Origin: an uncultured delta proteobacterium
Lineage (GTDB): Bacteria; Desulfobacterota; BSN033; UBA1163
Assembly: GCA_963827685.1 (NCBI GenBank)
Contig: CAWHBU010000010.1
Location: 1 to 45,661, forward strand
Reading direction: 5' to 3'
Length of the DNA: 45,661 nucleotides
Below are positions 30,190-32,234 of the stretch, piece after piece. Position numbers and translations under genes: made by a program. Position 1 is the stretch's first letter. The number at the start of each line of letters is the position of its first letter. Under the pieces are notes generated by a model. The model made no database searches. It worked only from the letters and a program-made list of their open reading frames with translations, and was not told where the DNA came from.

Positions 30190-30213
30190 TGCCCGGCGGG
30201 TTACCTCCGCGTT

Positions 30214-30372
30214 GAGGCTGTAGAAAAAGTGAATCTCGCAGGAATCCACTGAATTGGAAGAAAATGCGACCTCTCAGGATGCTCTGTATACGATGATCTC
30301 ACACTGGGGAGGGCTTAAGAAACCCCCCCAAACCACCCCTTATTAGTAGTGAGGGGGTTTTTCTACAGACTC
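30214..30372. mobile_element. MITE copy 1 (159 bp) inserted in an attC core
   Basis: TIRs GAGGCTGTAGAAAAA / TTTTTCTACAGACTC (14 of 15 match), flanked by GTT on both sides and followed by GTTAGGC. Confidence 0.8.
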
Positions 30373-30417
30373 GTTAGGCAAAAATAATAATTGATTTCAG
30401 GGTAATAGAAAAAAGGC

Positions 30418-30446
30418 TTGACAAGGTATTCTTTTTGGGGTATTTT
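30418..30446 (+). promoter_or_regulatory. sigma70 promoter of the TA cassette (likely leaderless mRNA)
   Basis: TTGACA-N17-TATTTT; ATG begins 7 nt after the -10 box and has no RBS. Confidence 0.6.
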
Positions 30447-30452
30447 TGTAGT

Positions 30453-30683
30453 ATGAAAGTCAAGACATCTATAACCTTGTCTGAAGATTTACTGAAAGCG
30501 ATCGATGAATATACAGGAGAATACAAAAACCGGTCCGAATTCATCGAGGATGCTGTGCGGGCTTTTATTATACAATTGATCCGCAGGCAGCAAGATTCCA
30601 AAGACCTTGAGATAATAAATCAGCATGCGGATTCTTTAAACCGAGAAGCAGCGGACGTTCTTACCTATCAGGTCGATCTGTGA
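30453..30683 (+). CDS. ribbon-helix-helix (CopG-type) antitoxin
   Basis: [18 protein letters not shown]....[15 protein letters not shown] overlap with the toxin gene. Confidence 0.88.
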
Positions 30684-31018
30684 AACGTGGTGAATTGTAT
30701 CGTGTTGCTAACCCTTCAGCCAAGGATCCCAAAAAATCCAGAGTTTTCGTTATTGTAAGCCGCCAAGTTCTCATCGATTCTCGTTTTTCAACGGTAATTT
30801 GCGCCCCGATTTATTCAACTCATGACGGTCTTTCCACTCAGGTACTGGTTGGTGTGGATGAAGGACTAAAGCACGATAGTAGTATTCACTGCGATGAGCT
30901 TATCAGTTTGCCTAAGTCGCTTCTAACCAACTTTGTGGGGTCGCTTTCTCTAAAAAAAATTGAAGAACTCAATAGGGCTCTAAGCATAGCCTTGGATATC
31001 CGAGATTTTAGGGGTTAA
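30680..31018 (+). CDS. mazF: PemK/MazF-family endoribonuclease toxin
   Basis: MKRGELY......[12 protein letters not shown]......STVICAPI...GL..DS.I.CD.L..L.K..L...VGSL. Confidence 0.9.
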
Positions 31019-31099
31019 CGGGTCGGTGAACTGGACCGCGGGGTGGCAAGGGTACTGATACCTGATGTGCCTTGGCCTCTGCCGGTTCGCTCGGCCTTT
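31013..31099 (+). other. degenerate attC site after the TA cassette
   Basis: R'' GGTTAAC overlaps the toxin stop; arms GGTCGGTGAACTGG / CCGGTTCGCTCGGCC pair with one extra base; R' (GTTAGGC, 31260) is displaced by a MITE. Confidence 0.7.
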
Positions 31100-31259
31100 G
31101 AGGCTGTAGAAAAAGTCAATCTTGCACGAGACCGGTAAGTTAGAAGAAAATACGACTTCTCACTATGCTCTATATACGATGATCTTATACTTGGCAGCGG
31201 TCAAGAAACCCTTGAAAACCATTCCTTAATCATAATGAGAGGGTTTTTTCTACAGACTC
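31100..31259. mobile_element. MITE copy 2 (160 bp) inserted in an attC core
   Basis: Same TIRs as copy 1; shared internal blocks GAAGAAAAT, ATGCTCT.TATACGATGATCT, AAGAAACCC; followed by GTTAGGC. Confidence 0.8.
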
Positions 31260-31296
31260 GTTAGGCAAACCAACCCTGGGAAGAGGTGGGACAGAC

Positions 31297-32145
31297 GTGA
31301 GGAAAGGTCAATCAAGTGGTACCGCGTTGGGTGTTACGGTAATTCGAGCTGTCCATCAGCTGATAGATAATGTCCCACATATTCTTGAAGATCCCATATC
31401 CCTTCAGCTAATCGACAGTGCCCGTATAGAACAGATACTCCAGAACCCGGAAAGATATCGATCGCAGTCAATGAGGGCCCTTCGGTCGCATGTGGTATTG
31501 AGAAGCAGATATGCGGAGGATAGTCTATTTGAGGCCATTCAATCGGGAATGCGCCAATTTGTCAGCCTTGGAGCTGGGTATGATACATTCGCCTATAGAC
31601 AACCCGTTTGGGCTCAAACCCTGAAAATAGTTGAAGCAGATCATCCAGCAACTCAGTCCTCTAAAATAGATTTATTAAAGCAGAGAGGAATAAAAGTGCC
31701 AGAAAACGTAGAGTTTCTGCCGCTTGACTTTGAAAAGGAGAATCTTGAACTGGGTTTGGCCAGGACGGCGCTTGATCCGACACGTCCGGTGTTTGTGGCT
31801 TGCTTGGGCGTTCTTGCATATCTTCATGTTGAAACTGTCCGGAAGATGTTCAGATGCATCGGCAAACTGCCAAAACTAACCAGATTGGTTTTTACATTCG
31901 CAATGAATAAAATGGAAAACCCAGGGCAGGATGATCAATCTGAAACCCTCTCTGGGAGAACGGCGGCACGTGGCGAACCGTGGCTTGCGCGCTTCGACTT
32001 AGGAGATCTAAAAAATGAATTAAACCGGAGCGGATTGTCAAACGTATGGTTTCTTGATCCTTCGGAGGCTGCAACAAAGTATTATGGGGGTAGAGATGAT
32101 CTTCCAGCGCCTCGAAAAGTAACAATGGGTCAAGCCATTGTATGA
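31297..32145 (+). CDS. SAM-dependent methyltransferase, LCM (leucine carboxyl methyltransferase-like) family; cassette gene
   Basis: TA.GV...RA.H, ILEDP, RSRYAED, QFVSLGAGYDT.AYR, EADHPATQ, LGVLAYL, GEPW. Confidence 0.9.
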   Translation: MRKGQSSGTALGVTVIRAVHQLIDNVPHILEDPISLQLIDSARIEQILQNPERYRSQSMRALRSHVVLRSRYAEDSLFEAIQSGMRQFVSLGAGYDTFAYRQPVWAQTLKIVEADHPATQSSKIDLLKQRGIKVPENVEFLPLDFEKENLELGLARTALDPTRPVFVACLGVLAYLHVETVRKMFRCIGKLPKLTRLVFTFAMNKMENPGQDDQSETLSGRTAARGEPWLARFDLGDLKNELNRSGLSNVWFLDPSEAATKYYGGRDDLPAPRKVTMGQAIV

Positions 32146-32151
32146 CTATCG

Positions 32152-32212
32152 GGTTTGCCTAACAAGGGCAGCAGATTGCCGAAACTGCCGGCTCCCGCTG
32201 ATGCTCAGCGTT
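32152..32212 (+). other. attC site after the LCM methyltransferase cassette
   Basis: GGTTTGCCTAAC is the perfect 12-nt complement of GTTAGGCAAACC at the cassette start (31260-31271); arms GGGCAGCAG / CTGATGCTC; ends in GTT. Confidence 0.78.
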
Positions 32213-32234
32213 GAGGCTGTAGAAAAAGTCAATC
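32213..32234. mobile_element. truncated MITE copy 3 (left end only)
   Basis: GAGGCTGTAGAAAAAGTCAATC immediately after the attC GTT, identical to the start of copy 2. Confidence 0.75.

Follow-up and report, generated by a model that had tools for sequence, protein, structure and literature searches.

A 45,661-nucleotide stretch of the genome of an uncultured delta proteobacterium (contig CAWHBU010000010.1 of assembly GCA_963827685.1; hereafter the window, meaning the whole stretch that was analysed) contains a cassette array whose four open reading frame (ORF) units are all co-oriented and separated by short repeated elements. What are these elements, and why do they lie at the boundaries between cassettes? 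In integrons, the GTT of the R′ core of an attC site is the crossover triplet of the integron integrase, and the R′ consensus is GTTRRRY. An original prediction, made from the letters of the window, proposed that the repeats are MITEs (miniature inverted-repeat transposable elements) derived from a DDE-type insertion sequence (IS), which insert at the GTT of attC sites with a 3-bp duplication and are found at every cassette junction. Here, we report the anatomy of these elements, their autonomous partner, the 3-bp duplication, their fixed orientation and the attC nature of most of their targets. The window repeats are very probably non-coding MITEs of an 1803-bp IS of the IS1182 family, which insert at the attC GTT in one orientation and duplicate 3 bp.

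The sequence and a repeat search confirmed the predicted anatomy of the window array: two full MITE copies and a 22-bp left-end remnant (Table 1), each starting directly after the triplet that ends an attC-like site (GTT, or TTT in the case of copy 2). The two full copies share 78-79% identity and are bounded by 15-nt inverted repeats, GAGGCTGTAGAAAAA on the left and GAGTCTGTAGAAAAA on the right (the reverse complement; also written TTTTTCTACAGACTC), which are complementary at 14 of 15 positions. Five matches to the repeat motif occur in the window at 0-1 mismatch; with up to three mismatches there are 11, compared with 2.08 expected, and not one shuffle out of 100 gave as many. The flanking triplets are GTT/GTT for copy 1 and TTT/GTT for copy 2, and both copies are followed by GTTAGGC, within GTTAGGCAAA, as had been predicted. 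No ORF within a MITE matched a protein family when the ORFs of the window were searched, and no Rfam match was found in 29500-33300 at E up to 1. Copy 1 carries a terminator-like hairpin (30336-30356) that leads into the T-run of the right repeat; this pattern match suggests that the hairpin could halt read-through between cassettes.

The autonomous partner was found in the same genome (5.23 Mb in 14 contigs, 94.5% complete), which was searched with copy 1 and the repeat motif. There are 77 repeat-like matches, and the genuine ends pair up into elements. Among these is an 1803-bp IS that bears the same ends as the window MITEs, with the same target, duplication and orientation, which bears out the predicted descent from a DDE-type IS. 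Its five full copies (contig:positions C1:62730-64531, C3:132997-134799, C5:312143-313945, C8:40941-42743 and C9:24561-26363) are 98.5-100% identical. The genome also has several truncated ends, as well as four internal-deletion derivatives with lengths of 304, 304, 405 and 586 bp. The IS consists of a single ORF of 517 amino acids (aa) between inverted repeats of 15-18 nt. The Pfam matches of the protein are PF13751 (DDE_Tnp_1_6) at 79.8 bits (cut-off 25.1), the N-terminal PF05598 (DUF772) at 53.8 bits (cut-off 23.1) and PF01609 (DDE_Tnp_1) at 41.6 bits (cut-off 23). The NCBIfam profile of IS1182 (NF033551) scores 256.7 bits (E 4.4e-76; curated cut-off 270) over positions 34-486 of 488, and the next family, IS5, scores 35.8 bits. 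Because of this near-full-length profile match and the domain matches, we call the element an IS1182-family IS, with the caveat that the profile score is below the cut-off. IS1182-family elements are ~1.3-2 kb in size.

Full MITEs number five in this genome, namely the two in the window and those at C4:261437, C5:314562 and C3:1074883. They are 158-160 bp long; their left 18 nt are identical to the left end of the IS and their right 15 nt differ from its right end at 0-1 position, and the likeness to the IS is confined to these terminal 15-18 nt. Among themselves the five are 74.5-86.3% identical, with a mean column identity of 84%. Compared with the 98.5-100% identity of the IS copies, this indicates that the MITE family is old and the IS copies are recent; it also agrees with the prediction that the MITEs arose by independent insertions. 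The MITE was detected in eight of 14 other genomes of the same genus and in none of 26 outside it (E up to 1e-6).

The flanks of the elements identify the target. For 13 paired elements of the own genome they read GTT/GTT in nine cases, TTT/GTT in two, and ATT/ATT and GTT/GTG in one each; the IS copy on C9 is flanked by GTT/GTT, and the five full MITEs by GTT/GTT (four) or TTT/GTT (one). It follows from the ATT/ATT copy, which is the IS on C1, that the triplet lies outside the element and is a genuine target duplication. A census of ends, obtained by BLAST to the reference termini in the own genome, other metagenome-assembled genomes (MAGs) and Pseudoalteromonas, with one spurious internal row dropped, gave GTT as the left flank in 42 of 52 cases (own genome 13/16, IS in other genomes 18/18, MITEs in other genomes 10/17, Pseudoalteromonas 1/1) and as the right flank in 51 of 55 (17/19, 18/18, 12/14 and 4/4, respectively). 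The target logo has C at -4 (45 of 52), A at +4 (47 of 56) and G at +5 (35 of 56), which matches the canonical R′ core GTTAGGC and the base before it; the left flanks also share a conserved TGA, part of L′, at -14 to -12. The orientation is constant, with the transposase-start end after '...C GTT' and the opposite end before 'GTT A G/T...'. Elements also occur in tandem, as IS-GTT-MITE at loci L065/L080 and as MITE-GTT-MITE at L093, so that the triplet beside an element end can be a target again. Loci L090 (genome G006) and L093 (genome G003) contain another MITE-like family, whose ends are the variant GAGACTGTCGAAAAA; at the latter locus the right end of this other family, GTT and the MITE studied here follow one another in tandem.

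The targets resemble attC sites in structure as well as in core sequence. When folded under constraint, the left flanks take the form RYYYAAC ... GTT, mostly over 50-60 nt, with bulged bases and with pairing between the inner boxes. We aligned 17 left flanks (13 from other genomes and four from the own genome), with the attC architecture supplied by hand. In this alignment 76.1% of cells pair, compared with 23-51% in controls whose partner was shifted by 1-3 columns. The AAC:GTT pairs do not vary, pairing in the L helix amounts to 84.3%, and compensatory changes occur at nine of 14 pairs. None of 500 shuffles reached the observed pairing or covariation score. The RNAalifold consensus of the same alignment contained only five pairs and was set aside as too weak. 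Two scans were likewise dropped, a strict RYYYAAC...GTTRRRY scan of the window, which gave zero matches, and a relaxed fold-based scan of the genome, whose 1582 matches were uninformative; a covariance model was used instead.

This model, R1, was built from the 17 flanks. With an E limit of 1 and the best 150 of 480 first-look candidates scored, its scan of the own genome found at least 24 sites, of which seven are occupied by an IS or a MITE and 17 are free. The R′ core that follows in the free sites reads, for example, GTTATGC, GTTGGGC or GTTCAGC, while the occupied ones comprise four seeds of the model and three non-seeds (C2:591326, C3:246455 and C4:99118). In a search with the filters off, at 14 own-genome loci (of L001-L034) chosen for left ends and excluding the C2:594489 end, 12 of 17 left ends had a match that ends exactly at the junction (E 2e-9 to 4.1). 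R1 finds more sites at neighbouring cassette positions in other genomes, nearly all on the strand of the IS. The targets lie at the 3′ ends of ORFs in co-oriented arrays with cassettes shuffled between genomes; cassettes 2, 3 and 4 of the window occur in differing contexts across other genomes of the genus. The flanks of the other copies, when tabulated, thus turned out to be overwhelmingly attC-like sites, rather than sites lying mostly elsewhere. Two parts of the original prediction were sustained only in part. Its statement that the MITE occupies every cassette junction is correct for the window array, at three of three internal junctions, but not genome-wide, where the 17 free sites lie among the 24 R1 matches (150 of 480 candidates scored). 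The window sites were predicted to be attC sites; site 3 scores 37.3 bits and site 2 folds as expected, but site 1 is degenerate and sites 1 and 2 have no R1 score. One free attC (C4:262856-262915) ends in ...GCCGTT GTT GGGTGG, with a doubled triplet. An excision footprint was considered there and is not claimed, as this is one case among 17 free sites with ~0.27 expected by chance.

Several observations weigh against our interpretation. The left flanks of MITEs in related genomes are GTT in only ten of 17 cases, the others being ATT (four), GCT (two) and TTT (one), and the score of the IS1182 profile falls short of its curated cut-off. Since the MITEs resemble the IS at their ends only and are far more diverged than its copies, their mobilization by the present IS is a probable rather than a direct conclusion. 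No R1 match was found at five of the 17 left ends (window copies 1 and 2, C5:314707, C9:24561 and C1:64517), and folding of the flanks placed the C1 copy with ATT/ATT and the element at C2:594200 outside any recognizable attC. The integron integrase of the own genome is a 141-aa C-terminal fragment at C3:782913-783335 (-) (locus L066), which scores 191 bits against a cut-off of 265, covers model positions 197-315 and lacks the N-terminal half. A complete intI was not found in this 94.5%-complete genome, and its arrays are therefore integrase-less attC clusters. Moreover, R1 was trained on occupied flanks, so that its matches on the 13 seeds from other genomes and the four from the own genome are circular. 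Independent support for the attC nature of the targets comes from the covariation, the free sites, the occupied sites that are not seeds, the shuffling of cassettes between genomes and the integrase context.

The insertion probably proceeds as follows. The 517-aa DDE transposase would make a 3-bp staggered cut at the G-T-T of the attC R′ core. The left end of the element, where the transposase starts, would then be placed beside the L′ arm of the attC of the upstream cassette, and the right end beside the remaining R′ bases (GTT-AGGC) that open the next cassette, with duplication of the triplet. A MITE would presumably be joined in trans by the IS transposase in the same orientation. The orientation would be set by the asymmetry of the target, in which the L′ arm and A-G lie on opposite sides, and recognition would probably involve the core C-GTT-AG together with the neighbouring imperfect hairpin arm. 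IS1272 has the same family of transposase, and attC sites are imperfect inverted repeats; since IS1272 is reported to choose inverted-repeat (stem-loop) targets (PMC5678879), structure-assisted recognition is plausible. IS1272 is reported to replace the target repeat without a duplication, whereas insertion of the element studied here leaves the attC arms in place, duplicates 3 bp and occurs at a single defined triplet.

Could the transposase instead prefer only a short motif, approximately C-GTT-AG, so that the placement at attC sites is incidental to their motif content? This would be in line with the non-attC copy on C1, which lies in C-ATT-AG, a one-base variant of the core, and with the logo, whose strongest positions are C(-4), GTT, A(+4) and G(+5). 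However, the own genome contains 142,204 GTT sites and 825 CGTTAG sites, and yet 12 of the 17 left ends adjoin an R1 match in register, so that the core motif alone does not account for the placement. The conservation of TGA in L′ and the fixed orientation are also at odds with a short motif, as are the Pseudoalteromonas targets, which differ in L′ sequence and keep the architecture. We consider this explanation improbable.

We attach very little probability to the proposal that the elements are themselves integron cassettes, that is, a transposase cassette and non-coding mini-cassettes moved by the integrase, with the GTTs as crossover products. Cassette insertion between G and TT would likewise give GTT on both sides, and transposase genes are, according to the cited passages, often reported among cassette-associated proteins (PMC11089894). 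The elements, however, have terminal inverted repeats of 15-18 nt and no R″-L″-L′-R′ site at their 3′ end; in a circle junction the GTT would fall in a hairpin loop and not in a paired R box, and the C1 copy is flanked by ATT/ATT. Nor would cassettes moved by the integrase be expected as five copies of 98.5-100% identity distributed over different arrays when the only integrase found in the genome, which is 94.5% complete, is truncated, or in the tandem IS-GTT-MITE arrangements. It is scarcely credible that the 159-bp units are an immobile functional module of the attC or cassette boundary, such as a terminator or a small RNA. Their conservation over the full length (84% mean column identity over five copies), the terminator-like hairpin with its T-run and their restriction to the genus (eight of 14 other genomes, compared with none of 26 outside) would suit such a module, but their ends are identical to those of an autonomous IS, they are flanked by target duplications and no Rfam family matched in 29500-33300. 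In addition, 17 of the 24 attC sites detected by R1 (best 150 of 480 candidates scored) lack the unit, and its presence at the same cassette junction differs between genomes.

Insertion by an IS1182-family element into attC-like sites is also seen in relatives elsewhere. A protein-guided search of genome collections gave 23 loci of 66-92% identity, with GTT at every visible IS end. The labels of the MAGs concerned are Thermodesulfobacteriota or 'delta proteobacterium', Nitrospirae/Thermodesulfovibrionia, Desulfobacteraceae and, for one, unclassified bacterium. In plasmid and chromid records, tblastn detected relatives of 42-44% identity in Pseudoalteromonas sp. NC201, P. piscicida and Catenovulum. 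The Pseudoalteromonas copies (44% protein identity) keep the GAGGCTGTAGAA ends and the GTT flanks. The full copy of P. piscicida has the ends GAGGCTGTAGAATT... and ...TATTCTACAGGCTC, is flanked by GTT/GTT and follows an attC-like flank with a different L′ sequence; GTTA comes directly after each of the four right ends in the two Pseudoalteromonas records. Both records also contain a complete integron integrase (438 and 460 bits, cut-off 265). The intI gene of NC201 (100077-101009, -) lies 6.3 kb upstream of a 5′-truncated IS copy (107321-108908, +) that is on the array side; that of P. piscicida (1224120-1225064, -) lies 7.7 kb upstream of a partial IS copy (1232773-1233588, +). The IS copies are oriented with the array. 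The attC-targeting behaviour is thus kept at protein identities as low as 44% and extends to cultured bacteria with bona fide integrons, and the copies in cultured Pseudoalteromonas open the system to bench study.

A further question is whether the MITEs insert repeatedly or travel with the cassettes. Genome G011 has a copy of cassette 3 that is 95-97.5% identical at all three codon positions, with a MITE at the identical junction; this MITE is 75.2% identical to window copy 2 and 83.2% identical to a paralogue. Compared with the identity of the cassette, the 75.2% of the MITE points to repeated independent insertion at the same site, in agreement with what had been predicted from the divergence of the window copies. 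Accordingly, the G011 case was rejected as an example of the same MITE-plus-cassette pair behind different upstream cassettes: it fits independent insertion and not co-transfer. The original prediction had also proposed that occupied attC sites may still recombine, with the MITE riding at the 5′ end of the next cassette; the G011 case does not support this idea. At the junction of cassette 4, genome G003 retains 108 nt of a MITE before the same TCGCCTAACTTAGG junction as the 22-bp window fragment. G003 shares the truncated remnant together with the odd cassette 4 junction, and its contig ends before the upstream cassette; G005 has an attC-like sequence without a MITE at this junction, and both genomes keep the heptamer listed in Table 1. 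For cassette 2, which has homologues in five genomes, no clean comparison with an empty site was found because the homology stops inside the attC. The occupied left junction, L′ arm-GTT-GAGG, fits six of the seven positions of the consensus GTTRRRY.

These observations can be combined into a broader, tentative reading that we regard as rather unlikely as a whole: a deep IS1182-family clade would be specialized on the crossover triplet, occupied sites would stay substrates for the integrase and for insertion, and the elements would spread by being borne on cassettes. Such a clade would extend from Thermodesulfobacteriota and Nitrospirota MAGs to cultured Pseudoalteromonas. Occupied sites that serve as substrates for further insertion would explain the tandem IS-GTT-MITE arrangement. 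If this were true, the shuffling and horizontal spread of cassettes would carry the IS and its MITEs along as cassette parts, and these elements would survive in clusters that have no integrase, as a two-level hitch-hiker of integrons.

How does this element compare with known systems? In the literature searched, as far as the cited passages extend, only two kinds of attC-specific element are named, the IS1111-attC group and the group IIC-attC introns. The former (ISPa21, ISPst6 and relatives of the IS110/IS1111 family) are attC-specific and orientation-specific IS (PMC11089894, PMC3971601, PMC11187229) that, by the cited description, have subterminal repeats and use a non-coding RNA to guide a transposase of the DEDD type (PMC11187229). 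They are similar to the IS studied here in invading cassette attC sites in a fixed orientation, but the latter has an IS1182-family transposase, which matches DDE families only and not the DEDD (IS110/IS1111) type, and has true terminal inverted repeats in place of the arrangement described in those passages. It also duplicates the 3-bp crossover triplet and has MITE derivatives; to our knowledge, IS1111-attC elements make no target duplication. Group IIC-attC introns are described in the cited passages as mobile and as inserting into attC sites in one orientation (PMC3001079, PMC7923331), and to this extent they share the target and the single orientation. They are, however, retroelements with a ribozyme and a reverse transcriptase, whereas a DDE transposase is present here; no group II ribozyme was matched by Rfam in 29500-33300, and no reverse-transcriptase ORF was found in the elements. 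MITEs derived from bacterial IS or transposons, such as MITEAba12 and the Tn3-derived TIMEs (PMC6382973, PMC13367494), are similar, according to their abstracts, in being short and non-coding, in having the ends of an autonomous element and target duplications, and in occurring in several copies; neither abstract reports attC specificity.

We found no IS1182-family attC-targeting element and no attC-specific MITE in the literature searched, which included few subscription journals and did not extend to ISfinder, and a named member may already exist. A classical DDE transposon that is cut at its ends, hits the triplet of the integrase and has given rise to MITEs would add a third solution to the two named above, with a mechanism independent of theirs. 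It bears on the evolution of arrays, namely on how they decay or fall silent (the MITE has a terminator-like hairpin), and on annotation, where occupied attC sites may be missed or split and transposases counted as cassette genes. It also bears on target choice, as a case of structure- or site-specific targeting by a DDE enzyme.

Table 1. Features of the cassette array in the window.
Feature	Position	Strand	Remarks
Promoter-like repeat, ~70 bp	29836..29906	+	Ends in the first R′-like core, GTTAGGT (29900-29906)
Cassette 1 ORF, 88 aa	29923..30189	+	Without a Pfam family
Degenerate attC of cassette 1 (TCTCAAC ... CCGC GTT)	30156..30213	+	Weak fold; no R1 match
Left GTT of the 3-bp target duplication, MITE copy 1	30211..30213	+	From the sequence
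MITE copy 1, 159 bp	30214..30372	+	Inverted repeats 30214-30228 and 30358-30372
Right GTT of the duplication, MITE copy 1	30373..30375	+	Opens GTTAGGC; from the sequence
Cassette 2, toxin-antitoxin	30435..31018	+	Ribbon-helix-helix antitoxin 30435-30683; PemK/MazF-like toxin 30680-31018
attC of cassette 2 (GGTTAAC ... TCGGCC TTT)	31013..31099	+	Fold with R″/R′ and L″/L′, -11.7 kcal/mol
MITE copy 2, 160 bp	31100..31259	+	Followed by GTTAGGC (31260-31266)
Cassette 3, LCM-type methyltransferase	31297..32145	+	Family match
attC of cassette 3 (GCCTAAC ... CAGC GTT), 56 nt	32157..32212	+	37.3 bits; R1 seed
MITE left-end remnant, 22 bp	32213..32234	+	Remainder lost by deletion
GCCTAAC heptamer, reverse complement of GTTAGGC	32235..32241	+	Directly before TTAGGAGG of cassette 4
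Cassette 4, class I S-adenosylmethionine (SAM)-dependent methyltransferase	32258..33070	+	Family match; last cassette

The individual sites of the array differ in their state. The L′ side of the cassette 1 attC is like that of the other attC sites, but its L″ side, or 5′ half, pairs poorly; genome G010 (locus L089) has the same L′ flank, with a MITE. The attC of cassette 2 is long, has TTT as its core triplet instead of GTT and is not matched by R1; a promoter-like site of this cassette itself lies at 30418-30446. The promoter-like repeat, which contains TTGACA-17-TAGGAT at 29839-29867, marks where the cassette array starts. A 90% identical copy of this unit occurs at C2:548787-548856 of the own genome (G000), with GTTAGG and an ORF downstream. 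The boundary of the unit, ahead of the first cassette, is exactly ATTATT/GTTAGG, and copies are present in most genomes of the genus, every one ending at GTTAGG; the unit may be a mobile promoter or an array-leader module.

Other repeats and mobile genes were observed in the window and the genome. Adjacent tyrosine-recombinase genes, with frames of 297 and 394 aa, occur as three identical sets at C1:55903-57550, C2:701291-702938 and C4:735131-736778, which suggests a repeated recombinase-bearing mobile element; one of the sets is ~5 kb from the non-attC IS copy on C1. Inverted repeats that are C-rich and G-rich, CCCCTCACCC... and GGGGAGAGGGGAAGGG..., lie on either side of the array at 28668-28755 and 35683-35731. 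Finally, tandem-like short motifs of the type GCATTCC/GCGCATAGCG (ATTCCGCATTCCGCA..., GCAGAGCGCATGGCGCATAGCG) are found at 29730-29830 of the window and at many intergenic sites of the genome.

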